Below, one piece after another: positions 2,601 to 57,875 of a stretch of 64,000 nt of DNA (the first letter of the stretch is position 1; every line of letters starts with the position of its first letter). Source of the DNA: Heptranchias perlo (taxonomy: Eukaryota). The stretch lies in contig NC_090340.1 in the NCBI RefSeq assembly GCF_035084215.1, forward strand, positions 5,456,001 to 5,520,000. The letters are read 5' to 3'. A program made the translations under genes and the position numbers. The notes beneath the pieces were generated by a model. It did no database searches. It was given only the letters and a program-made list of their open reading frames with translations, and was not told where the DNA came from.

Positions 2601-2780
2601 CGGAACCCACTGCAGACTGTGTTGGGGAGTCAACTTCCTTCATTGACTGTCATGCCCAGTCAGGAGACGCTAGTCACGAGTTCACGGATGGAGTTGAAGG
2701 GGCTGAGGGAATTTCGCGGGTGACCACCGACACTCGTTTGGCCTGCTCGGACATGGCACTATGGGAAAGCTATTAATTTA

Positions 2781-4359
2781 TCAATTCTCAAGTCGGTGGG
2801 GGACTGGCGAGATAGTTCGTAGTGGGGGGGGGGGGTGGTCGGACCCTGATGCCTGGCCTCTCCTACCCGTTGACTCGCTTCTAGGCTGTTTACATTCCCT
2901 CGTGAAATGTCCCGTCTTGCCGCAATTATAACATAGCAGTCCCCTCTGGGGAAATCTTCCCTTCCCAAATGATTGTTTGCTGTGTCTCCTCGGACCTCCC
3001 AGCAGTGAGACAGCTTTGTTTTTACCCCGGCTAGAGAATTGGAAGATATGTGATCTCGCACCTCCTCCCTTGCTCGCACAACAGTATACCTGAGAGTAGC
3101 CCAGGCACGATCCTTTGAAACGGACCGTCCCAGAGCTTTTCTCACCATACCGTGCAGCTGATGCAAAAAACATCGTGCAGACCAGGCCCACCCCCTGACG
3201 GGTGACGCTGTCAGCTGGGTTCGCTCATAGAGATCCTAGAGGCAATTTGCGAACGCAGTGGGGTGTACGCTGGGGCCCTGCACTGTCTGTGAGCAGCTGA
3301 GCTTCAAATAGATGCTATCGATGCCCAATATATTTGTAATTTCCGTGAACAGAAGGTCTGATTTGGCATCCAGCGTGTCGGACGCCGCTGAGAGGCACGC
3401 CTTCAATTTTGCCACTGCGGCGGCCAGCAGTACCTTTTTCAGGTCACCGACATCGAACTCGGGATGACCTCCTTTAATGTCTCCCCATGCCCGTGTGATC
3501 CCGATCGAATCATCCCTTTCTTTAAAACTGCAAATTCCTCTGGCTAAGGCCAGTGCCGAATTGGGTTTTAGTGGCTCTGACTCGTGCATCGTTGTGGGAA
3601 TACCACGCTTGTTAGCGGTCGTCTGCATTGTGATCACATTGACGTGCATCGGCCCCTTCTCATCACGATTCGGATCGTAGTCCGAGTAATAGTAAGGGGC
3701 AGCTTGTCCTTCCAGCCCGTCCCAATCTAGGTCGCCTCCGTCTCCAGGCTCATGGTAACGGCTGAAACATCAGCTTTATGGTGGTCCTAGTTTGCTCTGC
3801 ACCTCGTAAATCTTGAGTTCACATTGGGTATGGTCGGCCTCTCAAGCTGGTCTAGTCATCATCTCTCTTAAAGCTCCTCTTGCATCCTCCAGCTGTCGTG
3901 CCAAGACCTCAACCTTCCTTTCTCGTTCCGTAATCTTATCCTTCATTTCGCATGACGCGACTACGGGTGAAGCTGAGACACACGCCTGTGTTTTCTGCCG
4001 CTGCAGCATACATGACATGTCCTGTGCCCTAGTGAGTTGCGACTCGATATTCTGCTTTGTCTTGCAAAGTTCTTTCTCCAGATCAAGGACTGGTCGTCTT
4101 TTTCTGACAAACTTCTTTCTCCAGCTCAATTATGAGCTGCCGACTCTTTTGCACGCAAAAGAGGGCTGCGGAATCAAACAATTGCCTACCCTTTCCTGAC
4201 TTGATTGCTTTGTCGTCCATTTGTTTCTGGATCAATGCCACCACTGCGCGGAAGCTTTTATCATTTCTGGACATGATCAACGCGACGACATCCCCCACGC
4301 AACTTATCCAATTGCTTTTGTAAGGCTTTCTCTATGTCTGTTCTCTTAGGGTCAGCCAT
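2781..4359 (-). pseudogene. gag: Retroviral gag, frameshifted
   Basis: ATG at 4359 (MADPKRTDIEKALQKQ...) lies just downstream of the PBS. It is followed by a coiled-coil-rich fragment (3842-4298), a capsid-like fragment (3236-3649), and a partial CCHC knuckle CYNCGKTGHFTREC in ORF 2781-3191. Confidence 0.8.
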
Positions 4360-4500
4360 CCTATGGGGCGCTATGACTACTGGCAGGTATACCAAAGTTG
4401 CCTGCACTTCTTCACGGTTATCATTCCTAAACCGACGTACCAGCAAAATAGGTCGGTCTTGGACCTTATGTAAAACAGAACAAACACCACTGTTAGTCAC

Positions 4501-4518
4501 GCCCTGCCACGGTCGCCA
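4501..4518 (-). promoter_or_regulatory. Primer-binding site, tRNA-Arg type
   Basis: Minus-strand TGGCGACCGTGGCAGG is complementary to a tRNA 3' end ...CCTGCCACGGTCGCCA, which resembles vertebrate tRNA-Arg(TCG). It lies directly after the LTR-terminal CA. Confidence 0.8.
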
Positions 4519-4521
4519 ATT

Positions 4522-5310
4522 TGTAGGGTATCTCTGCTCTGTCGCAATAATTAGCGTGACTCCATTATGGAACAATGGGGTTTTATTAAGCTTTATACAA
4601 GGATCAGCACTACGCGCACTTATCAGTAGTTATCAGGACAGAACAAGAGCTATAACACCAGTTCTATGCTGGGTAGAGATCGTGCTCACTTCGCACAGGA
4701 GTCGTGACAGTTTACCTCTCATTACCGTAGGCCCCAACCCTGCCTGGGGCTCCTCTGCTCCTAGGCTCCTGGCCTATTCTGATCCCGATCTTCTCCTCAA
4801 GGCTGCCTGGTATCACTCCAGGATCAACCTTTACTCCTGCCCTGGTTCTCTGGAGTCTAACTCTCGCAGTGGGTCTCTCTTTTATGCCACTTTTCAGGAC
4901 AGGCACAGGGGCTGGCATTGAAACTGAATCGGGGCCTTTCCAAAGGGCGAGGTGACCAAAACGGCGTCGAGTATCTTCTGGACAAAGGATGACGTGTTGG
5001 CCTACTACTTGTCTCTACCTTTTGCGAGCAGAAGATGATTGAATATACCTCAAGATGCCAAACATCTTAGTTGACCAATCACTGGCCTACAACGTCTAAG
5101 AAGAAGCTGCTTCCCCATCGTGTCTTGTTATGCTTCCCTCAAGGCCGAAGTCAGCAGCTTTGGGCACGTTATCTCACAATCTATGCCTGTTCTCTGGCTA
5201 ACAATTCTAAGTCCCCATTGTTAAGTTTAAAGGTGATTTTTGGAGGTTTGGACAGTTGTCTCATCTTGTGGCCACGACTGAATAACTTTGTTATAATGGC
5301 TATAATTACA
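4522..5310 (-). repeat. Putative 5' LTR of the ERV (about 790 bp)
   Basis: The minus strand starts TGTAATTA (5310) and ends CCCTACA (4522), 3 nt before the PBS. It has a TATA-like CATAAAAG at about 4879-4886 and AATAAA at 4582-4587 (minus). The 5310 boundary cannot be confirmed because no second LTR is in the window. Confidence 0.7.
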
Positions 5311-21235: not shown

Positions 21236-21290
21236 ATGTTTCTGAGTGGAGCTCTTTTGGGCATGTGTTTCCTGGGCATTTTCAATCGAG
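21236..21290 (+). CDS. Copy 1 exon 1, signal peptide (MFLSGALLGMCFLGIFNR)
   Basis: ATG plus a hydrophobic 18 aa, with phase-1 donor G|GTAGAT conserved in copy 2. Too short for the ORF track. Confidence 0.8.
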
Positions 21291-24200
21291 GTAGATTTCT
21301 ATTTTTTTTTGTTATAAATTAACCTTTCACAAACTTTCCTGAACAAGATACAACACATGAAGTCGATCTTATAGTTGATATAAAATGGAGCAATGTTTTG
21401 GTGCTTTAATTTGATGTAATTTTAGCATGTGATGTGATTGTCAGACGGAAACAATTGGACGAACAAAGTGATGTTATTCATGTTAATTCAGCCAGGAAAC
21501 ACTTTCAGGAACTGGAGAATCATTCTAATAGTTAGGAACATAGAATTATTAATTTACCAATGAACTCGACGCACGTTATTATTTTGGTCGTGCAGATCAC
21601 TTCCCTATATATGAATTATTTAACCTGAGTGCGCATCTTTTGTTGATAGTTACTGTGGACATTTCGGGCAAGGTGATGCCAGGCATTGTACAAAAGACGG
21701 CGCTCAGAGGTACAAAGGTTACCTTCCGATGTCCTTTCCCCTTCGATCTCGATCATTCAAACATAATCCTTTACTGGTGGAGAGATGGTAATAAGACCTT
21801 CCTACAAGAAGACAGCAGAAAACAGTTCATTGTAAAGAAAGGCGGTGCCTACCTTCACCTCCTGAATGTGAGTGTCCCGGACGCCGGAACGTATTTCTAT
21901 GTAGCCAAATATCAGGATAAAACGGTTGTAAAAGGAACTGGTGTGCAACTTGTTGTATATGGTAAGTGTCGCTGGAATTGGACAGGTGAAGCGTTTAGTC
22001 GCGCTGAAGCTGTGGTTGATATTCAAACCGCGTTTAGCAAAGAATTTCAACATGAAAATGTCCTATTAATAAAAAGGTACAGCTTTCTACTTGTTCATAA
22101 AAATACGGAAACATTCCCAGTTCAAGAATCTCTGAAGAATGTGACGACTGACGCATGACATGAATTGTGATTTAATTTTGTGTTTATGAAGGAAAGTCAT
22201 CTCGAGGCTGAAGGCTAAGGCGCTTTTTCAATTATTGCACCCACTGCCTAAAAGAATAGTATTGATATTATTCGCAGTGTTATGCTTAAAGGCCCAATAC
22301 CTTATTTGGAAAGAACAGGGAAATTCCCATTCCAGTCATTTAGACGGCGCGCTTCCAGTTTCTGCCATGCAGGTAAAGTTCCTGAACAGCCGTTCGGCAG
22401 AACTAGTGAAATGCACCCGTTAAAGTAAGTGCCGCCGTCCAGCCACAGGTTCGAAGTCGATCCGCTCCGCACATAAGATGAAAATGTTCTTCATGTAACA
22501 ACAGAAGGCGTCCTGTACAGCAGTTCAACTATATCAGGTCGATTCGAACAGATTGGTATGAAAAAGCACAGCCTCGCTGTTGCAAATCTGTGTTGTTAAA
22601 TCTAACGGTGATGCGTCATTACAACAGGAGCGGAACTCGGAAAATAACGTGTGGAGAATCAATGGAGAAAAATCTAGATTGGGCTCCAGTCAGGATCAAT
22701 AATTATCATCGATACAACTACGATGCCACGAAACAACTGTTGATTATTTTATGAAAACGGATAGGATAGAGAATAAGTGTAGAAAATATTTTGCTTCATC
22801 TCTTTTTGCTCTTTTCCATTTAGTTGGCCCCGTTCCCCTGAAGATTGTCTCCACGGCATCCGAAGGGGCTTCATCTGCTTCTCTGCGGCTCCAGTGCAGA
22901 ACGGCTCCTTTTTACCCAAAGGATTTTAACCTCACCTGGCATAAAAATGGTACCGAAATTGTGACTGGATTTAGAACTGAACAACAGGCAAACACAGAGG
23001 GACTGTATGAAGTTATCAGCTCCTTACAAGAGATACGGCCAATCCAGCGCGGCACTGTTTATACCTGTCAAGTATATCACGTTTCAAACTCAATACCAGC
23101 AAATGTCAACTATACTGTTGGCAACGAAGGTAACATTATAGCATACTTGGTACTTTTATGTTGCCTGGTCACGCAGTAGTCGAATTTCCATTGCAGATAC
23201 TGTGGGATGCGTTTATTGTAATTGATTTGCATATTATTATGTCATCTTCGAAATCCACAAGCAGTTTAGAAATGTGCACAGCAATAATATAGCACGAATC
23301 ATGGGTCGGGAAGGATTCAACGTTCCAAAGTTAAATTAATGGAACACCGCTAATTAAAGTTTAAAGTCAGGCACAATATTAAAATGTATAGAGAGTTGAA
23401 AACAGCGGGCTGAGGCTACTGCGAAGAAGACTGTAAACAATTTCAAGAGGATGTAGGCAGCTCAGCAGATTTAGCAGAATCAACTCGGATGAAATTGCAT
23501 GCGTAAATATAAGAGGCGATATCGTTTGGTAGGATGAATGACAGCTCATACATGACAAATGGGGAAAAATAAATGAGTTAAATAGCTGAGCGATTCAGGG
23601 GTCGGGTCCATAAATATTTAAAAGTGTCAGGACAATAAAGCTGGGGAAAGTACCTTTTAGAAATCGGGACTTAGGGTTTAAAGGCAATGAGTTAACGCTA
23701 AACCGATACACATCGTCGGTTAGACTGTATTTAGAATATTGTGTTTATATTTGGGCAACTTACTGTGTGAATAATATTAAGAACATAGATAAAATATTTT
23801 TACTGAAGTAGTGTCAAGGATGCAGCATATCAGTTAAAAGGGGAAACAAAGAGATAAGGAGGGGCTTCATATCCTCGAATGGAGAAAGTTAAGAAGAGAT
23901 CTGCTTGAGATGTTCAAGACTTCGAAGGAGAAATGGAAAAAAAAATCTGATCAGTGAATCGGTTACCAGATGGCATACATTTAGGGTCATTACCAAAAGG
24001 AGGCAGGGAGCGGATATGGTTATTTTTTTTACCGACAACCATAGGAATTGTATGAAGTTCTCAGCTGCTTCCAGCAACCTGTAAAGAGCGGGATAGTTCA
24101 TACGTTTCTAGTTGCTCCTGATTCTCTCCCAATTCCAGCCAGTCTCAGCGACGCTGTTAACAACAAATGCAATGTTCAGACATACAGCACAATGAGAATG

Positions 24201-25605
24201 TCGCGGGTTTGGGAGGTGCTGTCAACGAAGAATTACCAAGATGCTGCAGTGCATCCTATGGATGGTACACACTGCAACCACAGTGCGCCGGTGGTGAAGT
24301 GAGTGAATGTTTAGGGTGGTGGATGAGGTGCCAATCAAGTGGGCTGCTTTGTCCTGGATGGTATCAAGCTTCTTGAGTGTTGTTGGAGCTCCACTCATCC
24401 AGGCAAGTGGAGAGTATTCCATCACACTCCTGACTTGTGACTTGTAGATGGTAGAAAGGCTTTGGGGAGTCACTCGGCGAGACACTCGCTGCAGAATACC
24501 GAGCCTCTGACCTGCATTATAGCCACAATATTTATGTGACTGGTCCAGTTAAGAGTCTGGTCAATGGTGAACCCCAGGATGTTGATGGCTGGGGATTCCA
24601 CGATGGTAATGCCGTTGAATGTCAAGGATTGGTGGTTAATCTCTCTCCTGTTGGAGATGGTCATTGTCTGGCGCGAATGTTACTTGCCACTGATCAGCCC
24701 AAGCCTGGACCCTGTCCAGGACTTGCTGTATGTGGGCACAGACTGCTTCATTATCTGAGTGGTTACAAATGGAACTGAACACTGTCCAATCATCAGTGAA
24801 CATCCCCATTTCTGATCTTATGTTGGAGGGAAGGTCATTGATGAAGCAGCTGAGGATGGTTGGACCCAGGACACTGCCCTGAGGAACTCCTGCAGCAATA
24901 TCCTGGGGCTGAGTTGATTGGCCTCCAACAACCACTAACATCTTCCTTTGCTGCAGTTGAAACAGAAAAGTCGCAGTGGCGACTGCTGTTTGAAATAGGA
25001 ACGCCGAAATACGGCATTAGAGGCAGCTGGACGCTTGGTCAGGGAAAACAGTGCAAGGAAATTCAAGAATGTTATGCTTTTCCAACCTGGTCAGATCCAG
25101 CACTAGTTCTATCCAAATTTAAGATCGCATTCCATTAATTGGCTGCGAATTTTTTTCCTCGCTCCTATAAATTCGCTTCGAAAGGTATCGTTTGATCATT
25201 GTATCTGGAGACTTTCTAATTATTTAAATGTTTTCTTTAGATTTTATTTATAGTATCGCTAAAAAACAAGAGAGGGAAAAAATATTTACAAATCTATCAC
25301 GATTTGATACAGTACTCAGAGGAATTCTTTACTCAGTGTGCTTTAACTTCAAAAGAAGATCCTGTGCGAGATTATATTGTATATCAAAGAAAGTATAAAC
25401 CGTCAAAGTTAAATTGTTTCGCATGTGTCCAGAAGAAAAAAATATAATCTTTTTGAAATGGTTTCTGGTTGTTTGCTGTACTTTTTTTCCAGATTACCAT
25501 TCTGTCCGCCCTGTCCACCTAATGTATCGATCCATAGTTGGGATATTGGTAATTATTCTACTAACGATGATCATCCTCAACCATGTTACATCAGATAACC
25601 TCTAA
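21236..25605 (+). CDS. Ig-superfamily receptor, copy 1 (leader-VJ-C1-TM, 261 aa); join(21236..21290,21650..21961,22824..23129,25493..25605)
   Basis: Four exons of 55+312+306+113 = 786 nt are joined by phase-1 GT-AG introns and stay in frame. Exon lengths are identical in the paralog at 50874-55691. The V domain lacks its second canonical Cys, so function is less certain than for copy 2. Confidence 0.88.
21650..21961 (+). CDS. Copy 1 exon 2, V-type Ig domain with germline J-like G strand
   Basis: Acceptor TGATAG; motifs VTFRC, LYWWR, LHLLNV, DAGTYFY and KGTGVQLVV; donor G|GTAAGT. Confidence 0.92.
22824..23129 (+). CDS. Copy 1 exon 3, C1-set Ig domain
   Basis: LQCRTAPFYPKDFNLTW...GLYEVISSL...YTCQVYH carries the C1 hallmarks FYP and YxCxVxH. 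Pyrimidine tract plus TAG acceptor; G|GTAACA donor. Confidence 0.93.
23385..24110 (+). mobile_element. Old, heavily degraded CR1 fragment in intron 3 of copy 1
   Basis: Residual similarity to the CR1 RT C-terminus (for example TTAGAATATTGTGTTTATATTTGG, about LEYCVxxW). Confidence 0.55.
24190..24955 (-). mobile_element. Family B LINE fragment in intron 3 of copy 1
   Basis: GVPQGSVLGPTILSCFINDLPS and MEYSPLAWMSGAPTTLKKLD; homologous to 5380-6493. Confidence 0.9.
25493..25605 (+). CDS. Copy 1 exon 4: stalk, transmembrane helix with Arg, short tail
   Basis: Acceptor TTTTTTTCCAG; DYHSVRPVHLMYRSIVGILVIILLTMIILNHVTSDNL*; a donor GTAAGA lies 2 nt after the stop. Confidence 0.88.
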
Positions 25606-25754
25606 ATGTAAGAGATTTTCAAAGCACAATTATAATCTTAAACAACATTTTTCAATTTATAACATAGAAGGAATGTGTGACATATGATTATCAATTCTAG
25701 CGATTACTATTCAGTAAACACAAAATGACGACATAATGAGACATGCCTTGTATC

Positions 25755-28700
25755 CGTAGGATCATACAGCGCAGAAGGAGGCCATTCCAACCAACGATCC
25801 TTTTTCGGTACTTTGATAGAACTATGCAATTAGTCCCACTCTCCTGGTCTTTCTCCATAGCCCTGCATTTTTTTTCTTTTTCAATTATTTATTCAATTCC
25901 CTTTTGAAAGTTAATAATGAGTATGTTTCCACCGCCCTTGTAGGCAATGCAGTCCAGATAAAAGAAAACGCACTGTGTAAAGAAAAAACTCATCATTCCC
26001 TCTGGTTCTCGAGCCTCGCCATATAACTGAAGTCCCCCGTACCTGGTATAAGTTTAGTCAATCTCTTCTGCACTCTCTGCAAGGCATTGACATTCTTCCT
26101 AACGTGTGGTGCCCAGAATTGGACACAATACTCCAGGTTTAGCCTCACCAGTGATTGATAAATGCTTTGTATATCTCCAAAAATCCGTTATGCTTCATTT
26201 ATGCCATACCAATTTCTGTATTAAATTTCAGCTGGAAGTTATTCCTGTTTTTCAGTTATTCTGCATATAACACTTACCAGTCCTGGATTCGATACCAAAT
26301 TGTAATTCACTTCACGGGGTATACCACTAGGCTCCTCCTTCTCCGTGCGGTTCCAAAATCCCTTGATTCCCTTACAGTACAAAATCTATCGATCTCAGCT
26401 TTGAATGTGCGAATCGACTCAACAGCCAAAGCCCTCGGCGGTAGAGAATTCCAAAGATTCACAACCATCTGAGTAAAGAAATTCCTCCTCATCTCAGACT
26501 TAAATGGCTGACCCCTTATCCTGAGACTATGCTTCCTATATCTAGACTGTCCAGCAAGGGAAAACAGCCTTTCAACATCTACCCTATCAAATCCTCTAAG
26601 AATTTTATGCATTTCAATGTGATCACCTCTCATTCTTCTAAACTCCAGAGAATTTTACTCAATCTCGCCTCATACGAAAACCCTCTGATCACAGGGATCA
26701 ATCTAGTGAAACTACATTGTACCGCTTCTAAAGCAGATATATCGTTCCTTAGGTAAGGACACCAAACCCGTACACAGTAATCCAGGTTTGGTCTCATCAA
26801 AGCCCTGGACAATTGTAGCAAGACTTTTTTACGCTTGTACTCCAACCCCATTGCAATAAAGGCCAACGTACCATTTGACTTCCTAATTACTTGCTGTACC
26901 TATATGTGAACGTTTTGTGTTTCGTGTGCAAGGACACACAAATCTCTCTGAACACCAACATTTAATAGTTTCTCACCATTTAATAACATTCTGTTTTTCT
27001 ATTCTTCCTACATAAGTGAATAAACTCAATCTCCCCACATTACACTCCATCTATCACATTCTTACCAAATCACTTAATCTGTCTATATCACTTTTCAGAA
27101 TCTTTGTGTCATCCTCACAGCTTACTTTCCCACCTAACTTTGTATCGTGGATGCGAGGTGTATCGAGGAAACTATTCTTCCGTCAGTTGCTGGATATATT
27201 GCTCGATTGGTGAAGGGGCCTGAGATTGACCGACTAAGTCGACCGTGTTTTTGTAATAAAATAGTGTTGGTTCAATATTTTTCATTGCTTACTTTCCTGT
27301 TCCAAACTTTTCAAACGTTTTTTCTTACATAATTACAAATTTCTTGACAGCTGTGCTCAGAATTTCGCAGATTCTGCATTTTTCTTCCATGGGCTTTACA
27401 CCTTCAGGGCCATATACAAACGATATGGAATTTTAGGATAGAAAGTTCCACACATTTGACAGGAGACCCCCTTGCAATAAAGTCCAACATACCATTTGCC
27501 TTCCCAATTGCTTGCTGTACCTGCATGTTAACTTTCCGTGCTTCGCATACATGGACGCCCGACTCTTTCTCAACACCAATATTTAATAGTTTCTCACCAT
27601 TTAAAAAACATATTTTGTTTTTCCATTCTTCCTACCAAAGGAATAACCTCGCATTTCCGCATGTTATACTCCATCTGCCACCTTCTTGCCCACTTACTTA
27701 ACCTCACTATTTCCCTTTGCAGATTCTTTGTGTCCTCCTCACGGCTTGCTTTCCCACCTAGCTTTTTATCGTCAACAAACTTGGATAAATTATACTCGGT
27801 CCATTCATTTGAATCATTAATATAGATTGTAAATAGCTGAGGCACAACACTGATCTTTGCTGCTCCCCACTATTTACAGCCTGCCCATCAGAAATTGACC
27901 CGTTTATTCCTACTCTATCTTTTCTGACAATTAACCAATCCTCCATTCATGCTAATATATTACGCATAACTCCATGAACCCTTATCTTGTGTAACAATCT
28001 TTTGTATGTCAGCTTATTAAATGCCTTCTGAAAATTCAAATAGGCGAAATCCACTCGTTCCCATTTATCTACCCTGCTAGTTAAATTCACAAATAAGTCA
28101 TAGATTTTTTCATAAAACCATGTTTGACTCTGTCTAATCATATTATGATTTTCTAAGTGCCCTGTTACCACTCCCTTAATAATGGATTCCAGAATTTTCC
28201 AGACGACTGATGTCAGGCCAACTGGCCTGAATTTCCCTGTTTTCTCTCTCCCTCTTTTCTTGACTAGCGGTGCTGCATTTCCTATCTTACAATCCGCTGG
28301 GTCCGTTCTCGAATCTAGAGAATTTTCGAAGATCACAACTAATGTGTGTAACATCTCTGCAGCCACCTCTTTTAGAACCCTAAGATGTAGGACATAATGT
28401 CCAGGAGATTTGTCGTCATTTTGTCCCATTAATTTCTCCAGTACCTTTCATTTACTAATATTAACTACTTTAAGTTCCTCACTCTCATTAGATCATTGGT
28501 TCCCCATAATTTCTGGTATGATTTTGTGTCTTCGATTGCGAAGACAGATACTAAATATTTGTTTAACATCTCTGTCATTGCCTTATTCTCCATCATAATT
28601 TCTCCTGTCTCAGCCACTAAGGGACCCACGTCTACTTTCGCTACTCTCTTCCCTTTTACATACTTGTAGAAGCTCTTACAATCTGTTTCATATTTCTTGC
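25755..28700 (-). mobile_element. Cluster of CR1 fragments (about 25755-26155, 26330-27145, 27465-28700)
   Basis: RT and C-terminal motifs RNFFTQMVVNLWNSLP, LDYCVRVW, SKFVDDKKLGG and FRPVGLTSVV. Confidence 0.85.
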
Positions 28701-29335
28701 ACGTTTACGAGAGCATGACAGCGAGTGATCTCCGGTGGACTGTGAAGCTCATCGTGAAAGAGTACAGTTCACTGAGATTACAAAAAGTAAATTTCATTAA
28801 CGGTTGAATTTATTCCTTGAATATGGGATGGACTTTTGTTACCTTGATACAATTGCCATTACTGATGAAGTATCATAAATTGTGGCCCCTAGTTTCCGTG
28901 GCAACGATTTTATTCCTGATTTCTCTCCAACCCCGGTGCAAGTTCCAACAAAACCGCGCACACGCGGTTTACACCGATGCTCTTCAGTTCTGCCGTCTCC
29001 TCTCAAATTTGGGTCCGGCTTTCAGAAGAACTGCCCGACATTTTAGGACCTTTCTATCCTGAAATTCCAAATCCTTTGTACACTGCTGTGAATGTGTAAA
29101 AGTCTGTCGAAGAATAATGCGGTATCTGGGAGATTCACCACAGCTATCAATATTTTTTTTAATTAGACAAGACAAAACGTTTGAAAAGTTGGAACAGGAA
29201 AGTAAGCAATGAAAATAATGACCTAACTCTATTTTGTTAAAAAATCACGGTCAATTAAGTCGGAAAAACTCAGGTCCCCTTCACCAATCTAGCAATAAAT
29301 CTGGCAATTAACGGTGGAATCGTTTCCTCGATACA
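27159..29335. repeat. Inverted repeat pair with arms of about 300 bp (about 27159-27456 and 29039-29335)
   Basis: TGTATCGAGGAAAC...CATTGCTTACTTTCCTGTTCCAA...AGGATAGAAAG is matched in reverse complement by CTTTCTATCCT...TTGGAACAGGAAAGTAAGCAATG...GTTTCCTCGATACA. The arms have diverged. Confidence 0.85.
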
Positions 29336-29504
29336 GAGGGGATTTAAATGCTAATGAATGTCACTTCAATCAGACCAGACGAATTATTTTTGAATGATTA
29401 TATCAATACACTTGGCAGGTGAACATCATTGGCTCAGGCAATGAATCGTAGTTTGGTGTTAAGGTTTGATATATGTAACTTACAAAAGGATTGTTTATTT
29501 CCAG

Positions 29505-29613
29505 ACGATTTGATGCTGATGAAAACCACGGCTTAGAATACTCCAAGAGTTAACATGAAAAGGCAATTTCTCAGCAACGAAGAGAATCACAATATTTGAA
29601 CGTGACCGGTTAG
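29505..29613 (+). pseudogene. Candidate vestigial cytoplasmic-tail exon with tyrosine motifs
   Basis: Acceptor TTTATTTCCAG. The phase-2 frame reads RFDADENHGLEYSKS*HEKAISQQRRESQYLNVTG*. AATAAA follows at 29821 and 29887. Confidence 0.5.
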
Positions 29614-31049
29614 GATGGATCCTCGAAACGGCCGCAATCCCTTATAACTTGAATCGGATCATGTAATGGACGTCAATGTTGGAGTAAATCTGGTCTGTAT
29701 GTTGTTAAAAAAGTGACCGCCAGTAACAGTCCGCCAGCATATGAAAATGTTCCTCAATTTTATTGAAAAAGCTTCAGAAAGGGTTTTCTGGTTGCTATGT
29801 TTCAACACACTTTACATTTAAATAAACTGACTACTACTGTCAGGCCTACACTGAAATGTATGTGGCGACAGCATTAATTTAATTGAAATAAAATGATCCA
29901 ATGCTTGGTTATACAATAAGCGGCAGATTGAATATTTCAGAGAAATTTGAAAAGTACAGTTGCAGATTATTTCTTGTGCGAAGTTTAATCGTAAATGGGA
30001 TAACTCGGAATAGGTTTATCAAATTTCCCAATATGTATAAAAGTAAAAAGCCAAGATCTATTCATTGGACTTCACAAGACGAGTGCACATCGTTTTATAG
30101 AAGGTCTTCTTGTCGTTGCCACCATTTACAGAGACGAGTGGCCTACGGTTTGGGAAGCACAGCTGCTCTATATGCAAATGGGGAAATATTGGATTTGCCG
30201 TTGATGGTAAAGGTGCAGATTAGTTGAATACGCCGATGTATGCCTGGCTAAGACAGTTTTACAAATAGGCACATTGTACAAATAGCCGAATTTTTGAATG
30301 CGGAAACTACTTCAATTGTCATTCATTATGGTCAACATGCAGTGCTGTGTGAAAATTCAAACTGGATCTGTGTGCCATAATCATAGATACAAAATGGTCA
30401 TGCCTAGCAAAAAACAATATTTGTTTGTGTCCTGTGTTGTGTGGATTGATCAGGATTGAAAAATGGAGGTTAGGCGTGAAAAGGTGAAAAGATGAAATTG
30501 GGAGCAACATTTTTCATTGCCCAATGTCTCGTCAGTAGACCATGAAAGTACATTCTGATCGTACCAAGATAGTAGGGCTATCATGAAATTAGATTTGATT
30601 AGTATAACCTGATCTGTCACACTGCCTGCCGATGTTACCGTGCACGTTAGGCACTCATTTCCTCTCCTTTGAGTCCAGCGAACGGTAAGTTCTTGGACAC
30701 AACAGGCATGAATAATGGTTCAGACTTGGGTGTGAGTATGATTTTGGGTGATAATGTAAAACGGACGACATCATGGAGAGGAACATGTGGAGAGATGTGT
30801 AACGTGCGGCTGAATCGATATCGCCCGATTTACACTATCAACTCCTTCAGTGGCAAAATGCTGACTTGGACGTTTTGGAAGAGGGTAACCTGGGCATCGC
30901 TTAAGTCTCACGAGGACAGGTTGCATAAACTTGCTTTGTATTGGTGTGAGTTTAAACGTTGAGGGCTTATTTAATTGATGCGTTTAAAATCATGAAGGGA
31001 TTCAATAGGGTAGATACTGATAAGTTATTTCCTCTGGTGGGGTTTGTTG

Positions 31050-33185
31050 ACCTCCTTCCTTCTATGGTTCACCATAACCGCTTCGAGTAAGTTCGAGACA
31101 CTTGATAGTTGAATAATCGGAACAGACTGTGGATTGTGTATACAGTATAGGCTTGAGATGCTCTTCCGACAGTTGGGTCAAGGACATTATCTTCTTCTTT
31201 ACCCAGCAACAAAGGGTTAACATGATAATCAATAACAGGATCTGTAAACTCACGATGCAAACGATGGGGTGCAAAACATTATTTGAAACTCCAGGCTAAC
31301 GCAGTCAAACCGAGCAACGACTACCACTGTGGCTGCTTAATATCATGTTCTATTCTCCTTTGGATCAACCGTATCTGATCTAAGTCGTCTTTAGTTTCCA
31401 AATGAGACTTCCAATCAATATCATTTAACTTATCCAATTCCTTCTTCACATGCTCAATATCTGTTAATTGGCTTGATATTTAGTCCCATATCCGCATTAA
31501 TAATCGAATAGTAATAATCCCCTACAGTCTTATTCCAATTAAAGCATTGTGCAACAGAGAACGAGGAACACTCACATATGCATATCGAACATAGCGTGCA
31601 CAAAACAATACATATGGTATAGTCTGACAATCGATCATATCGATGGCTACATTATAACACTTGGTTCTGAAGTATAACAGTCTATGTTCAGCATAAAATA
31701 ACATGGGCCTCACTCGTTTCCGCAAATGGGTTACAGTCACCCGAGTTACGTCCTCCCTTGTAGGCTGAATGGTTGGAAAGCATATCCATTTAAAGTAATT
31801 ATCCAGGCAACTTGTCACATGATACTGTGAAAAACTGCCTGTTGTGGTAGCAATGTCTGATCCCCAGCCTTTTTGGTCCGTAAAAATGTATCGGAAACCC
31901 CGTATTATCAGTCCTACATCAACGTATGGTTATAGCATTTCTTGGGTACCACACTGTGGAATTCACCAGAATTTTTATTTCCGTGCACAATCAGAACTGT
32001 AGAACACAGGAGGGTGAATTATCAATCGCAAACTGGCTAACGTTACTAGAGAGTTGACTCCGAACACAATAGGGTAGGCGAATGCTTGTGGTCTGTTGTA
32101 GCAACATTTTGTAGCTATCCATGATAACTTGTGTACCGAGACAGACGACAACCCAAGATACCTGCTTAGAAGGGTTAAAGAATTCGGAGTCAATGATCTC
32201 CATATTTTCCCATAAACCCTGTGATTCAGTCATTGACATGTTTACAAGCTCATGAGCCATGTCTGATTCAGCCCGGGGGGCACCTTTAATAGAGTAGACA
32301 ATTGCTCGTAGATCTTTACTCAAAGCTTGTAGTTGTTTCGCTAGGACCTCATTACTCATAGCATTAAGCGATGCCGTTCCCAGTCCTACTCCGGTCGCTA
32401 GGGTGTCCAGAAGATCACGTTTTACCCTAATTTGAACGCTGGATAAGGAATGTGAACAATTAACACACTTCCATGACACATCAAACAAAGAAATGGATAA
32501 GAAGCATGCACTATTTTCCAACACATAACTTGATACAATATACGATTCAGGTGGAGCAACGAAAAAATAAGACCTGACCTGATTTGGGCCACGCACATGT
32601 CGCGCGATGGCATTGTTGTACCACTTCCCGGTACAGCAGTAGTGTAGGTATCCACATTAGGGCAGCGCAAAGGGTTCACACTTATGGAGCCGACATCCTT
32701 TTACCTGCTGTTCCACACAGCATGTCAGGACAGTGGAAGTGTTACACATAACCTCCCAATATTGCCTGTGCACGTATGTGAAGTAAATACAGATATTCAC
32801 GGCAATATTCCACTGTTGGTTGAAAAATGTGTACGCGTCAGAGGTTTTATTATCATGCCACCACGCAGTGAGCAATACAATGAGGATGGTTCCATCATCA
32901 GCCAGTCACCAGACCACACCACATGGAGCCGGGCCCTTTTTGTGAACGATCTCATAATGGACATTTATTGTAACCAATCATAATAACCCCTACATTCCTC
33001 AGTGTACAGCTGAATAGACCGTACATGGGACAGTCTTCTTCGTATACGTATCAAGCCTGAATCGTTAATTAATTTACACCATTAGCATCCTGGCCTAAAT
33101 ACAACAGTAAGATAACACTCTCCTCGCATTTCCTTTTTGAAAGGATCTTGAGCCTGCCGTCCACAACTGATCTGTTGATTGTCAA
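31050..33185 (-). pseudogene. env: Orphan endogenous retroviral envelope (class I fusion protein), disrupted
   Basis: Furin site RVKR (32417-32428), then the fusion-peptide-like DLLDTLATGVGLGTASLNAM and a heptad (EVLAKQLQALSKDL). A Cys-rich ectodomain follows, then a second heptad (HVKKELDKL...IRLIQRRIEHD), W*SLLG and the TM LHPIVCIVSLQILLLIIMLTLCCWVKKK. Several frameshifts and stops. Confidence 0.85.
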
Positions 33186-50873: not shown

Positions 50874-50928
50874 ATGTTTATGAGTGGGTCACTTTGGCGC
50901 ATATATTTCCTGGGCATTTTCTATCCTG
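50874..50928 (+). CDS. Copy 2 exon 1, signal peptide (MFMSGSLWRIYFLGIFYP)
   Basis: Homologous to 21236-21290; donor G|GTAGAT. Confidence 0.8.
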
Positions 50929-53900
50929 GTAGATTTTTATTTTTATTCTAATATATTAATCGTTGCTGAGCAAGACACCACACTTGAAATTGATCTAATA
51001 GTTGACGTGCAGTCGGATATTGCTTTTTGCTGGTTTAATTTGATTTAATTTTTTGAAGTCATGTGTCTCTTGCCGCATGTAAAATCTAGATGAGAACGCT
51101 AATGTTATTTATGGTAATTGAATGGGGAAACACATTTTGGATCTGGAGAATAATTATGATAGTTAGTTAATTCCTAATGTACCCATGGACTGGATGCGCG
51201 ATAATATTTTGGTGGTGCATATCATCTTTCGCATATATTAATTACTTAATCAGTGTGTCTCCTTTTTTGATAGTTGCTGTGGACACTTCGGGCAAGGTAA
51301 CTCCGGGTATTGTACAAAAGAAGGCGCTCAGAGGTACAAACCTTATGTTGCAATGCCCTTTCCCTTTCGACCTCGATCATTCAAACGTAAATGTTTACTG
51401 GTTTAGAAAGGATAGCGAAACCCTCCTGCAAGATGATAGCAGAAAACAGTTTCACATAAAGAAAGGCGGCGCCTACCTTCACCTCCTGAATGTGACCGTC
51501 CTGGACTCCGGAATTTATCAGTGTGTAGCCAAAGATAAGGATCGAACGGTTGGAAAAGGAACTTTTGTACAAGTTGTTGTATATGGTAAGTGTCGGTGGA
51601 ACTGGAATCGGGAAGAGTTTATTTGGTGTCGATATTCATACTACGTTTAACAAGGAATTTCAATAAGAAAATGCCTTGTCTATAAAACAGTACAGCTTTC
51701 ATAATTGTTTATAACGACACGTGTTCAAAAATAAAGAAACTTTCCCAGTTCCAGAGTCTCTGAAAAAATGTGAAAAATGACCGAAATCTCCAATTGTGAT
51801 TAAATGTTATGTTTATCAAGGAAAGTAAATTCAAGGCTGGGAACCAAAACGCTTCTTTTCAATTTTAGCACTAAGGCCCAGTGTCTTATTTGGACATTTA
51901 TACGGTGCGCTTCCAGTTTCTGCGATCCAGATACAATTCCTGGATCGCTGTTCGGTGGAACTGGCAAGACGCATACCATAAAGCTGGTCCCGTAGTCCAG
52001 ATGGAGGGTCCGAAATCGCTCCTTTCATGTCCAGATGGAGAAAAAGTTGTCCATGTAACCACAGAACGCGACCTGTACTGTTGCAGCAGTTTAATAACAG
52101 AATGCCGATTCGAACACATTGATACGAATAAAAAGAGACCTAATATTCGAAATAAATGCTGTTAAATATAACAATGATACGCCAGTACCGTAGAAGAGAA
52201 AGTTCGGGAAATAACGTCTCTAGATGGATTTAAGAATATTACAGAGAGTTACGTAGAATGTACAGCACAGAAACAGACCATTCGGCCGAACAGCTCCATG
52301 CCGGTGTTTATGCTGCACATGAGCCTCCTCCCTCCCTACTTTATCTACTCCTATCAGCATATTATTTTAATCTGTTCTCCCTTGTGTGTTTATCTAGCTT
52401 CCCCTTAAATGCATCTACGTTCGTAACCTTACCTATTCCTTTTAGTGGTGATGTCCACATTGTAACCACTCTCTGGATAAACATGTTTCTCCTGAATTGC
52501 CATTTGGATTTATTAATGACTATATGATATTTATGGCACCTAGTTCTGGTCTCAACCTTAAAGACCTCTATCGAATCACTCCTTAATCTTCTATTTTCAG
52601 AAGAAAAGAGCGCCAGCTTGCTCAATCTATCCCGATAGGTATAACCTCTCAGTTCTGTTATAGTCCTAGTAAATATTTTTAAACGTTCTCTAGTGCCTCT
52701 ATATACTTTTTATAATATGGAGACCAGAACTGTTCACAGTACTCCAAGTGCGGCGTAAACAAAGTTCTATACAAGTTTAACATAACTTCTCTGTTTTTCA
52801 ATTCTATCTCTCGAGAAATGAACCCCTGAGCTTGGGTTGCTATTGCTATGGCCTTATTAACCTGAATCGCTACTTTTTATTGATTTGTGTATCTGTACCC
52901 CCAGGTCCCTCAGCTCCTCAACCCCATTTAGATTCTTGCTGTTCAAGCAGTATGTGCCCCCTTATTCTTCCTACCCAAATATAATACTTCACACTTATCT
53001 ATATTTATATTCATTCCCCCAATTACACACTTATTCTGCCAGTTTATTAATGTTCTCCTGCATTTTGACGCAGTTCTCCTCTGTATTGACCATACCTCCC
53101 AATTTGGTGTCATCCGCAAATTTTAAAATTGTACCCGTGACACGTTCCCTGGATTTGTTCTATCTGCCTTTTTTAAAGATAGGAATCACATTAACTGTCC
53201 ACCAGTCCTCTTGAACAAATCACTTTTCTATTGAATTTTTAAACATATGTAATAGTGCCTCTGCTATCTGTTCCCTAACTTATTTTAATATGCGTGGATG
53301 CAATCCATCCAGACCAGGGGATTTACCCTTTGTAGGTTTGATTAGTTTATCAATTATCTCCCCCCATTCTATCTTAAATGTCTTCATATCCTTTTTGGTC
53401 TCTTGTTCTAATGCCATGCCCGCCACATTAGTCTCCCCGGTAAACACCGAGGCAACATAATTATTTAATATTTGTGGCACTTCACTTTCATTACCTGTGA
53501 GGTTTTCGTTTGTATCCCTTAGTGGCCTTATCCCTATCATGGTTTTTCTTTTGTTATTTACGTATGTGTAGAATACTTTACAATTTCTTTTTATATTCTT
53601 TGATAATTTAATTTCATAGTTTATCTTTGCCTTCCTAATTGTTTTCCTTAAACTCTTTCCTACCCTTTTTGTATACCCCTTTGTCATCCTCTCCTTTGTT
53701 GTTGGTGTGCTTAGTGTATGCCGTTTTCTTAGTTTCAACGTTGCCCTTATTTATTTATTCATCCATGGTGTATCAATACTTGTAAGTTTGAGCTTGCTTT
53801 TTCGTGGGATATATTTCTCTTGGACGCTTTTGGTCACCGTTAGAAATGTTTCCCACTGCTGTTCTAGTTATTTGTTTATTAGTAAGCTTTTCCAATTTAT

Positions 53901-55691
53901 TTTTCCTAGTGTCATTCTCATCCCTTGAAAATCAGCACTTTTTCCAATTTATTCCTTTGTTTTTTCTCTTACTTTTATCGTTCTCAATCTTTACCTTAAA
54001 TCTTATTATGTTGTGATTGATATTGCCTAGATATTGCCCGATGCTTACGTTTCCTATCTGTTCTGTTTCATTTCCCATTACGAGATCCAGCAGTGCTTCC
54101 TCCTTTGTTAGGCTTTTTACCTAGTGGATAAGAAAGGAGTCCTACAAATATTGTAAAAACTCAATTCCCTCTACACTTTTACCTACCTCATGGCAGATTA
54201 TTAGGGGATAGTTGAAATCTCCCATGATTATTATTCTACATAAATATAAGATAATAATTAAGAAATCCAATAGGGAATTCCAGGGAAACTCCTTTACTCA
54301 TTTTACATCTTTCCTTACACATTTCGTCCTCCAACTCCTTTCCACTATTAGGTGGTTTGTAGTATATGCCTGTTAGAGTGATCGATTCCTTCTTATCTTT
54401 CATTTCAATCCTTATGGATTCTGCTTCTATCCTTGCATATAACAGTAATATGCCAATAGTGTAGAAGACGAAGTTCGGGAAATGATTTCTGTAGATACAG
54501 TGAATAAAATTTAGTTTAGGCTACATTCAAGATAAATAATGATTGTCCGTACAACTACAATGCCCGGACGCAGGCACCGGTTAATTTTTGAGAAAAAAAT
54601 AGCAGACCATATACGGGTCAAATATTCTTCTTTATCTATTTTTGCTCGTTTCCGTTTAGCTGTCCCCGTTCCCTTGAAGATTGTCTCCACACCACCCGAA
54701 CGGACTTCATCTGCTTCTCTAAGACTCCAATGCAGAACAGCTCCTTTTTATCCGAAGGACTTTAACCTCACCTGGCATGAAAATGGTACCGAAATTGTGA
54801 CAGGAATTGAAACTGAACAACAGGCAAAGACAGAGGGACTGTTTGAAGTTATCAGCTACTTAGAAGTGACAGACCCAATCGAACGCGGCACTGTTTACAC
54901 CTGTCAAGTGTATCACGATTCAATCTCAATTCCAGCAAATGCCAACTACACCGTTGCTAACGACGGTAATATTATAGAACACGTGGTTCTTTTATCGATT
55001 TCAGAGATTCATTACCCAGTAATCGAGTTTCCATCAGAGATAATGGGTACAATCAAAAATATGTGGAAAGTGTTTACTGCAGTTGTTTGCATATCATTCT
55101 GTCACTTCCGAAGTCCAGTTTTACTTCAGCTCCCATGTGATGATTCCCATTCCGTTGGGCATTAGGATCTGATGAGGAATAAGTTGGTCGCAAGCAGTTT
55201 AGGTAATAGTGGACGCCAGTCCACATCGTAGTTTCCATAATTCACTCCATAACTAGCATAATAAGCAAGGAAAATAATGAGATAAATTAACACAGCGATA
55301 GATTGGACAGAAGAACCAAGTGATAATAAATAACATTAAATGCAAAATCCTATTCCATACTAAATCCTAGTCACACATCATCCCTGACGTCGCTGACCTA
55401 CATTGACTTCCAGTCCTCCAATGCCTCAATTTTTAAAAAATCATCTTCGTAATCAAAGCCCTGGATGGCCTCACCCCTCAATATCTCTATTTCTCTTTCC
55501 TGAAGAAACAATATCACCAGATTGATATGGTCTCAGGTTATGAGCTATGCATCATTGATTACCTTTTACCTTTTCCAGATTATCGCTCTGCCCTCCCCGT
55601 CCACCTGATTTATCGATCCACAGTGGGGGTACTGGTAATTATTCTACTAATGATGATCATCTTCAACCATGTTTCATCAGATAACATCTAA
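50874..55691 (+). CDS. Ig-superfamily receptor, copy 2 (leader-VJ-C1-TM, 261 aa), apparently intact; join(50874..50928,51274..51585,54660..54965,55579..55691)
   Basis: Exons of 55+312+306+113 nt, all joined by phase-1 GT-AG introns, in an open frame. All four canonical Ig Cys and both core Trp are present. Confidence 0.92.
51274..51585 (+). CDS. Copy 2 exon 2, VJ-type V domain
   Basis: LMLQC, VYWFRK, DSGIYQC and VGKGTFVQVVV (GxGT motif); TAG acceptor and GTAAGT donor. Confidence 0.93.
52240..54436 (-). mobile_element. CR1 LINE inserted in the V-C intron of copy 2
   Basis: GKSPGLDGLHPRILK and RRNMFIQRVVTMW motifs, with an APE GDFNYP remnant near 54210. Absent from the copy 1 intron. Confidence 0.85.
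54660..54965 (+). CDS. Copy 2 exon 3, C1-set Ig domain
   Basis: LQCRTAPFYPKDFNLTW...YTCQVYH; TTTAG acceptor and G|GTAATA donor. Confidence 0.93.
55579..55691 (+). CDS. Copy 2 exon 4: stalk, TM with Arg, short tail
   Basis: Acceptor CTTTTCCAG; DYRSALPVHLIYRSTVGVLVIILLMMIIFNHVSSDNI*; donor AG|GTAAGA 2 nt after the stop. Not in the ORF track. Confidence 0.88.
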
Positions 55692-57589
55692 AGGTAAGAA
55701 CATTTTAAAAAAATTATAATCATGAACAGCATTTTTTCAATTTATAACATGGAAGGAATATGTGACATTTTATTTCTCAATTCAAGAGATTATTACCTGA
55801 TAAACACACAATAATGAAATACGATGACAAAATCCAGGCTGTGCTATTAGGGCCGCAGTGTAATGCTGCCTTAACGGTACGTAAAATCGGCTTTTACTTT
55901 GCCCTCAGATTCATGGCCTTACCAGCATCCATTAAAGAGACAAGCTGTGCACGACTTGTTAGCAGTCGGTTCTGCGCCATTTATGCCATCCTATGTTCTC
56001 TATTAAATTATAGCCTGTATCTTATTTTTATTTTCAGTTATTCTATATCTAACCAATTCCAATGCCAGAATTAGATATCCGTTTGTGATTCACTTCAGGA
56101 TACACAATGGACCTAAAATTCCGTTGGATTACCACCAGCTTCTCGCGGGGGAACGGTGCAATTGCCATAAAAATTGCATACATTCAGAAAACGACCATTT
56201 GCACCGTTTCTGCGTGCTTCAACAGTGAACAGGTACAGGAGCAACAGTTGAACAACTACTGCGGTAGGAGCTCCTCCAAAAATGAGCACTTCGATACGTC
56301 ACTTCTGTACTTTGGCAAAAAGACAATCGTTGATGAGAAGATACAGAACCTCGACACATCATTCGACACATTACTCGTTGTGATAACAGCTCAACGCAGC
56401 ACCTGTTACCGCAACGATCGACACCATACTTCTAGACGGCTGCCTTGATGTTTAATGTAGGTTGTCTGTGCTACTTGCTTTTGCTTTACGTCTGCTTGTA
56501 GGAATCGGGTAGACAGTCCACGTATTAATTGAATTGCTTCATGCTTATGTGCACGTTTTTTTTAAATCATTAAATAATCGCTTTGATTAATGTACCTATT
56601 GTGTAAGCGTGCATTTCTTTGCGTGGGTTATTGTCCAGGTCCACGAATCTCAGGGAAAGACCCAAATTTCCCTACACAGTTCTGGTCTCCATATTATAAA
56701 AAAAAAGTGTATAGTGGCACTGGAGGAGTTTTAAAAAGATTTACTAGGATGATACAAGATATCAGTTCGCCGATTCGGGGTATCATTCCTTTTCTGTTCT
56801 TTGCCTTTAAAAAATCTGGGTAATCTATCAGTGTTACCTACCCCAATAAAATTAATGGCTGGTTTATCTATTCTAACCCTTGGCTCAACTAATTTAAATG
56901 CTCCCAAAAGGCTACCTCAAAATTCTCGGATATCTGTGCATCACGAAGTTAAGATGGAGGCCATCTCTCCGAAAAAGCTTATCCTGCCGCTGAAAAAATC
57001 CCCAGTTTTCTATAATTGTATGTTTCTCCCTTTTACAGAGATCGCCGAGCTACAGGTTGAGTCCGATGATTCAGCGGTTCCTTTCGGCAGCATTGGAAGA
57101 AAGTTAGGCGTGAAAAGATTAAAGGATGTAATGAGTATAACATTTACCATCGGCCAAAATCTGGTCACTAATCCATGAAAGGAAGTTATGCTCTTGAGCC
57201 AAAATTGTAGGGCTTCATGAAATTGAATTTGATTAGCCTTATCTCCTTGGTCACACTGCCTGTCGATGATACCGTAAGTTCCCATTCCTCTCCTTTGAGC
57301 CCAGCGAACAGTAAGCACGTTGGCGCAACAGTCAAAAATAAGGGTTAAAACATTTTGGGAGCAATATTAACTGTGGGTGATAATGTAAAACCTGAATATC
57401 ATTGAAATGAAATTGAGAAGAATTGAATAAAGAGCGCCAAAATCGAAACGGCTCGTTTTACATAATCAACCAAACTCAAAATTACTTCCGTTAATTCGGG
57501 TCTGCGCCCACATTTCGATGCGCACGGCTCCCGTTCTGTTGCTACTTGGATGATTTGGGAGAGGACAACCTGGCCATGGCGAGGCCTCA

Positions 57590-57875
57590 CGAGGATAGAT
57601 TATATAATCTTGATTTTTATTGGCCTGCGTTTCGAACGATGAGAGCTTATTGAATAGAGGTGCTTAAAATGATCAAAGGGTTCGATCGGGTAGCTATTCC
57701 CTCTGGTAGAGGAATCCAGAATAACAAGACGCAATCTCGGCCATTCAGGAGTGTAATCGGGAAGTACATTCTCACACGAATGATAGTGAAAATCAGGAAT
57801 TCTCTCCCTCGAAAGGCTTTGACCGCTGGGCCAACTTAAATTTTTAAGACTGAGATCGACAGGTTTTTATTAGTT
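57590..57875 (+). mobile_element. Old CR1 3' fragment shared with the duplicate unit (homolog at about 30905-31043)
   Basis: CTCACGAGGATAGATT...AAAATGATCAAAGGGTTCGAT...CCTCTGGT matches 30907-31038. Confidence 0.65.

Follow-up and report, generated by a model that had tools for sequence, protein, structure and literature searches.

Several described receptor systems resemble the genes analysed here. SIRP receptors have a three-domain V-C1-C1 ectodomain, and the transmembrane (TM) segment of SIRP-beta carries a lysine. NKp30 (NCR3) combines a VJ domain with a TM arginine, and receptors of this type pair through the arginine with an ITAM adaptor, while B7-H6 (NCR3LG1) has a V-C1 ectodomain. The available part of a study of KIR describes how activating receptors arose from inhibitory ones by acquisition of a TM charge and a stop codon inside the ITIM, and then spread by recombination of the signalling domain (PMC2213150). 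In sharks, the non-rearranging VJ-C1 genes UrIg and UrIg2 begin with an unsplit VJ exon followed by C1, as set out in the accessible portions of two reports (PMC12227049, PMC10751288).

The window, a 64-kb stretch of Heptranchias perlo DNA, contains two tandem genes, each consisting of signal-peptide, V-set, C1-set and TM exons. A protein search identified them as annotated Heptranchias perlo proteins (copy 1, P0002; copy 2, P0001). In copy 1, on the plus strand, the coding part of the signal-peptide exon (21236-21290) was located by tblastn of P0002 and has a recognizable splice donor. The V-set exon (21650-21961, Pfam) ends in a J-like last strand and is spliced to the C1-set exon (22824-23129; Pfam, E 1.8e-11), which is spliced on both sides and has a phase-1 donor. 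The exon for the stalk and TM segment (25493-25607) encodes an arginine at the outer edge of the membrane span and terminates at a TAA (25603-25605), followed two nucleotides on by a phase-2 donor (TAA AT/GTAAGA, donor after 25607). Copy 2, also on the plus strand, spans 50874-55693 (signal exon ~50874-50927, V ~51273-51584, C1 ~54659-54964), and its Arg-TM exon at 55579-55693 has the same TAA and donor (TAA AG/GTAAGA, donor after 55693). The phase-2 donor that the original prediction placed 2 nt after the TAA in both TM exons is thus confirmed. Both proteins carry the TM arginine and terminate at the TM exon without a tyrosine tail. A G-x-G-T strand lies inside the V exon, so that each gene has a J-like V domain plus a C1-set domain recognized by Pfam.

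The V exon of copy 1 encodes a tyrosine in place of the second canonical cysteine (DAGTYFY), a position occupied by cysteine in 15 of the 15 other V rows. RNA contigs match this exon without differences, the tyrosine included. The expressed copy 1 protein may lack the V-domain disulfide and may therefore be impaired. The intron between the C1 and TM exons of copy 1 holds a decayed piece of a second C1 exon (24040-24170, plus strand; blastn E 4e-4), which could hint, though only suggestively, at a former V-C1-C1 form or at a local duplication. Elsewhere in the window, positions 1-5000 of the minus strand contain broken gag- and pol-like frames, apparently of an LTR retrotransposon, and LINE remnants were recognized by eye across much of the remainder.

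The segment of interest lies downstream of copy 1, across a 3.9-kb intron, where an acceptor (...TTTATTTCCAG/A) opens at 29505. Its transcription was assessed with contigs of four runs from one sample, the RNA nature of which is presumed except for the spliced contigs. Contig X1 rec 1 joins V to C1 across the intron, and X3 rec 17 joins C1 to TM and leaves the genome exactly at 25607, where 25 unaligned letters follow; because these exons are joined across introns, the contigs contain copy 1 mRNA. X2 rec 12 begins at 29505 with 23 unaligned letters and X3 rec 22 begins at 29504 (a G) with 12, and the letters that precede 29505 in contigs starting at or beside the acceptor do not fit the intron. 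X1 rec 7 (29589-29866) has a depth of 47.9, compared with 41.2 for the C1 contig rec 3 and 3.5-5.6 for three intron pieces. Contig cover reaches 29866 at C1-exon-like depth, with nothing in the bin that follows. The segment very likely represents the genuine last exon of the expressed copy 1 gene, untranslated behind the stop. This terminal exon, now 3' UTR, spans 29505-29910 on the plus strand (contigs X2 rec 12, X3 rec 22, X4 rec 30 and X1 rec 7), its 29910 end being an estimate from the second of two AATAAA signals (29821-29892, plus strand; at 29821 and 29887). We infer the 25607-29505 splice junction from the contig ends at both sites.

The acceptor, the phase-2-compatible frame with its translation and the AATAAA signals are all present as originally described. 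The start of the segment also stands; its end had been placed too early, as the frame runs to the TGA at 29764-29766 and contig cover to 29866. As to whether 29505 serves as an acceptor in RNA, contigs do start at or beside it and break at 25607, and these ends strongly suggest the junction. A repeat origin was rejected: by blastn the segment is single copy in the window, and its contig depth is low compared with thousands at repeats. A search of Rfam over 25400-31500 gave no matches. The exon had been reported missing from copy 2, and this was borne out in two ways. A blastn search (word 7) with 29351-29950 found no other copy in the window, copy 2 included, and collinear anchors (26184-26314 with 55966-56097, and 30469-31016 with 57103-57696) enclose 4.15 kb in copy 1 versus 1.0 kb in copy 2. 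The copy 2 interval that has no terminal exon, 56098-57102, is the counterpart of copy 1 26315-30468.

Protein searches for relatives yielded 16 clusters (members listed for 10, the other six having a single member) with 26 proteins, all from sharks and rays; an Atlas search of P0002 returned only generic V-C1 clusters (SIRP-like, tapasin-related and B7-like). Trees and identity tables omitted P0014 and P0015, each of which is missing a domain, and redundant isoforms, and comprised 17 and 16 rows. One group is of inhibitory type, with an uncharged TM segment and ITIMs such as LTYAAL and LVYAAV (P0007, P0008 and its isoforms, P0011, P0012, P0013 and P0026, from horn, zebra and epaulette sharks). 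The other group has an arginine at the TM edge and short tails. A paired family, as the original prediction proposed, is therefore represented by ITIM-bearing siblings in other sharks. The inhibitory sibling expected nearby was found neither in the window nor among the matches from Heptranchias perlo, which account for two of the 16 clusters. P0026 (epaulette shark) seems to be a model fusing two neighbouring genes; the second of these, in its second half, is a divergent V-C1-TM gene with LIYTSV, ~23-35% identical to the domains in the window, and suggests a further subfamily that is absent from it. Among rays and sawfish, P0004, P0009, P0010, P0024 and P0025 form another Arg-TM type (WIVRG), whose tails are very short; in P0010 and P0024 the protein stops directly behind the TM segment, possibly by independent truncation.

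Five catshark and bamboo-shark models (P0005, P0006, P0019, P0020 and P0021) share the TM exon of the window and read through the TAA position into a further exon, here called exon A, which is ~86 nt long and in the bamboo-shark models is entered in phase 2 and left in phase 1. Because the same TM exon is open at the TAA in all five, the stop is derived and the arginine is older, in agreement with the proposal that the stop was a later change. The TM exon is 61-73% identical to those of the Arg-TM relatives and 19-28% identical to all others. The proposed conversion of an inhibitory receptor into an activating one by the stop is not supported; given an old Arg-TM exon so distant from the inhibitory TM segments, the stop shortened a receptor that was already of activating type. 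Exon A was sought in the window by tblastn and a frameshift-tolerant scan, with nothing above background; one candidate, near 56100 / 26318, found no support. When exon A was compared with the first exon of the inhibitory tails, none of 12 pairs was significant, and no homology between them is claimed.

In their V domains, copies 1 and 2 come nearest to the ITIM-type horn-shark receptors P0007 (77%) and P0008 (67%; 87/94 in the V tree), the ectodomain trees being mostly without resolution. Compared with P0003 and P0005-P0008, V is closest to the ITIM-type horn-shark receptors, and C1 and TM are closest to the Arg-TM relatives. Judged from these sequence affinities, the discordance suggests that V exons were exchanged between paired receptors.

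A homolog carrying the segment as coding sequence, sought in the original prediction, was found in one catshark isoform model, P0017 (XP_038662040.1; isoform X3), which skips the TM exon and ends in EDYVPIKRRHLEYSES-stop. The catshark peptide end was scored as back-translated DNA with one indel allowed. At the acceptor plus two nucleotides it scores 35. Among 7915 AG-anchored sites two, 29505 being one of them, reach this value, as did one of 20000 shuffled peptides in one run and none of 20000 in another. The family has 21 distinct C-termini, and the remaining 20 score 28-32 in the 29505 exon. The matching region, 29505-29553 on the plus strand, requires one 1-nt indel and ends at a shared stop (29551-29553). 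The window exon reads GLEYSKS-stop, and its phase-1 frame starts DLMLMK. In an unanchored frameshift scan the match was the highest on the plus strand, below three minus-strand peaks, and 19 of 1000 shuffles equalled it in the unanchored shuffle test. The link comprises 16 residues of one predicted TM-skipping isoform and compares a catshark peptide with the DNA of the window.

Since catshark ...HLEYSES-stop matches the exon at the acceptor with the same stop, LEYSxS-stop looks ancestral. By this comparison the 29505 exon likely once encoded the end of a short tail lacking an ITIM, as in the catshark gene model. The match therefore implies entry in phase 1, a 1-nt deletion in Heptranchias perlo and a shared stop after LEYSxS; the phase-2 frame then likely owes its start (RFDADENHG) to chance, and SQYLNV is placed downstream of the old stop. 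The reading we favour, with a confidence slightly above even, is that the segment is the first part of a spliced terminal exon that now serves as 3' UTR. In this reading the expressed gene encodes a V-C1 receptor that ends at the Arg-TM segment and would likely signal through an ITAM adaptor, and the exon was likely once the end of a short non-ITIM tail.

Several observations would suit an exon that was always plain 3' UTR, the catshark reading being an exon-skipping accident and the tyrosine motifs products of chance. None of the TM-containing models seen uses the exon as coding sequence, and in P0019, the TM isoform of S. canicula, the stop falls within exon A. Stops have a random density, and hexamers of the ITIM type are frequent. 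DNA changes slowly in sharks, which could by itself preserve the catshark match. However, entry in phase 1 fits the phase-1 exit of exon A, as deduced from P0006 versus P0021, and in the second half of the catshark match five of six residues and the stop agree. We regard a purely untranslated past as unlikely.

The end of P0017 is also similar to the stalk encoded by the TM exon (DY-x6-HLxY; 25 of 20000 shuffles). This likeness keeps alive another origin, in which the segment served a secretory form and may have arisen long ago by duplication of the beginning of the TM exon; C1 (or V) spliced to it in phase 1 would yield a soluble decoy. P0017 is exactly such a soluble model. X3 rec 22, which starts at 29504, could have been spliced from a different upstream exon than that for the TM segment, one ending in G. 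Against such an origin, the P0017 end fits the TM exons poorly in DNA scoring (28 and 26 versus 35), blastn gave no link between 29505 and the TM exons, and in the single contig, among those listed, that spans the C1 donor, this donor goes to the TM exon. This origin appears very improbable.

The original prediction held that the exon is the relic of a two-ITIM tail, cut off by the TM stop, with an inhibitory receptor becoming an activating one as a result. LEYSRV and SQYLNV were claimed for one tail, and the two prove incompatible: with one A deleted LEYSRV appears, but translation then runs on as ...NMKRQFLSNEENHNI-stop, which puts SQYLNV out of frame, whereas in the unedited phase-2 frame SQYLNV is the sole fit to the ITIM consensus. 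Such hexamers are easily found: the three frames of the 3.9-kb intron contain 11, and of the window's 519 acceptor-like sites, 20 have one when read in the phase-2 frame. A second ITIM can be gained by a 1-nt deletion at only 2 of these 519 sites (29505 and one other), so the LEYSRV/SQYLNV recipe is uncommon and not unique. Three stops in 86 codons are ordinary, as 4948 of 12750 frames have three or fewer.

Comparison with actual inhibitory tails gave no further support. None of six matched the exon in any of three frames in a shuffle test (best, 55 of 1000 shuffles), tblastn with tails from 15 homologs placed none at 29505, and nothing in the exon matches the LTYAAL-type tails that inhibitory receptors of this family have in other sharks. 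The catshark counterpart has LEYSES-stop in place of LEYSRV, and SQYLNV falls downstream of the shared stop. The Arg-TM exon, moreover, is common to two other shark orders and distant from the inhibitory TM segments. What can be said for a two-ITIM origin is that SQYLNV meets the consensus in the phase-2 frame, that the recipe is rare, that the TM stop is derived, that ITIM siblings exist, and that the available part of the KIR study describes such conversions (PMC2213150). In addition, the Arg-TM receptor P0006 of the bamboo shark ends in VGYDAL, an ITIM-consensus hexamer, which counts against the reading favoured here; the last exon of P0006 (AL-stop) is unlike the 29505 exon, and P0021, another model of the same gene, lacks VGYDAL. 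The exon is not supported as a fossil two-ITIM tail, the motifs do not hold up, and a stop-driven conversion is held to be most improbable.

The frame of the catshark match continues past the shared stop (29554-29766, plus strand) with SQYLNV at 29587-29604, YENV at 29740-29751 and two more stops between; the same stretch holds LYVV. YxNx binds GRB2/GADS and YxxM binds PI3K, according to the available part of PMC11599192. There are 13 instances of YxNV in 128000 codon positions, and two YxN[VLI] within 86 codons were found in 14 of 12750 frames, at four loci including that of 29505. Scarcity of this kind, in the LEYSKS frame fixed independently by P0017, would accord with an exon that is the remnant of a longer tyrosine tail reaching 29766. 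Such a tail, with Grb2-type YxN and possibly a YxxM of PI3K type where it begins, would have belonged to an older Arg-TM receptor with two signals, truncated at LEYSxS and, in a second step, at the TM exon. At the position of the I in catshark YVPI the window has ATG, although YVPM itself is in no sequence. Three stops are at chance level, and YxN[VLI] follows C1 in none of the 26 family proteins. The 86-codon read-through had no phmmer match at E 0.001 among 1.84 billion representatives, a weak sign of absence because one representative stands for each 50% cluster. As the motif was picked after the sequence had been seen, a longer tail is graded as doubtful. In its full form the proposal is that the exon preserves a two-layered decayed tail of an ancient shark VJ-C1 receptor, which would have signalled through an ITAM adaptor via the TM arginine and through its own Grb2/PI3K-type tyrosines (YxN twice, YxxM at the start), and which was cut in steps while V domains were exchanged with ITIM siblings of an apparently undescribed SIRP-like paired family; we likewise give this only a small chance.

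Under the favoured reading of a former short tail, the old exon order would have been C1, TM, exon A and the 29505 exon. The TAA presumably arose in the TM exon before copies 1 and 2 split, or was copied between them. We infer that exon A was lost, no trace of it having been found in the window. The 29505 exon would then have suffered the 1-nt deletion in copy 1 and been lost from copy 2. The product is predicted to be a V-C1 receptor with almost no tail, the arginine of which would pair with an ITAM adaptor such as FcR-gamma or CD3-zeta, and its mRNA would take the 3' UTR and poly(A) site from the 29505 exon. Nonsense-mediated decay follows a 50-55 nt rule. A stop only 2 nt ahead of the final junction should let the mRNA escape decay, which would not happen with the ~86-nt exon A kept; such escape would favour loss of exon A. 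Pairing in this family likely came about by the joining of similar V-C1 ectodomains to two old and different TM/tail modules, and not by a recent stop-codon switch.

Taken by itself, the terminal exon is a modest instance of coding sequence becoming 3' UTR. The family is more useful: non-rearranging VJ-C1 receptors in sharks and rays with two signalling modules, one an Arg-TM segment with a short tail and the other an uncharged TM segment with LTYAAL-type ITIMs, in which V does not follow the TM type. A literature search, with subscription papers and preprint supplements mostly outside its scope, found no account of a shark VJ-C1 paired family, and one supplement file of an elephant-shark paper (PMC3964593) contained no matches for SIRP, B7H6, NCR3, ITIM or CD47. 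If real, the family would extend SIRP/KIR-style paired-receptor evolution to cartilaginous fish and provide candidates for shark NK or myeloid receptors.

The two genes show traits of paired receptors, namely an arginine in the TM segment without a tyrosine tail and siblings in other sharks with a similar ectodomain, an uncharged TM segment and ITIMs. They resemble SIRP-alpha and SIRP-beta in their J-like V plus C1, and several relatives are named SIRP-like by NCBI. In a PDB search SIRP-alpha (2wng) matched over C1 at E 7e-14, but Ig heavy chains score as well as or better than SIRP, so the matches are generic. The LTYAAL motifs of the siblings resemble the ITIMs of SIRP-alpha. Unlike SIRP, the shark gene splices one C1 to TM, and its membrane charge is Arg where SIRP-beta has Lys. 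The VJ domain with a TM arginine is shared with NKp30, which, unlike the shark genes, has no C1, and the V-C1 ectodomain is shared with B7-H6. The NCBI label of copy 2, NCR3LG1-like, is automatic, and no B7-H6 chain was among the best 60 of 1812 matches in the PDB search.

UrIg and UrIg2 share the unsplit VJ exon followed by C1, with only a generic C1 match here (E 1.6e-12). In contrast to the single C1 of the present genes, UrIg2 has nine C1 domains (available part of PMC12227049), and the accessible portions of the two UrIg papers describe no one-C1 paired family (PMC12227049, PMC10751288). Hominoid short-tailed KIR and activating Ly49 likewise combine a basic residue in the TM segment with a stop that cuts off the tail, and their later swaps of signalling domains onto other ectodomains fit the discordance between V and TM in the shark genes. 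Their activating signalling domain, however, nests within the inhibitory lineage, from which 5-7 nucleotide changes separate it, and the stop falls inside an ITIM, as the available part of the study has it (PMC2213150). The shark Arg-TM exon is only 19-28% like the inhibitory TM segments, and the lost tail is without a shown ITIM. By analogy, the shark genes would fit the second step of KIR evolution, domain recombination, and not the first, stop conversion. They may work as SIRP or KIR paired receptors do, but they have neither the V-C1-C1 ectodomain of SIRP nor the many C1 domains of UrIg.
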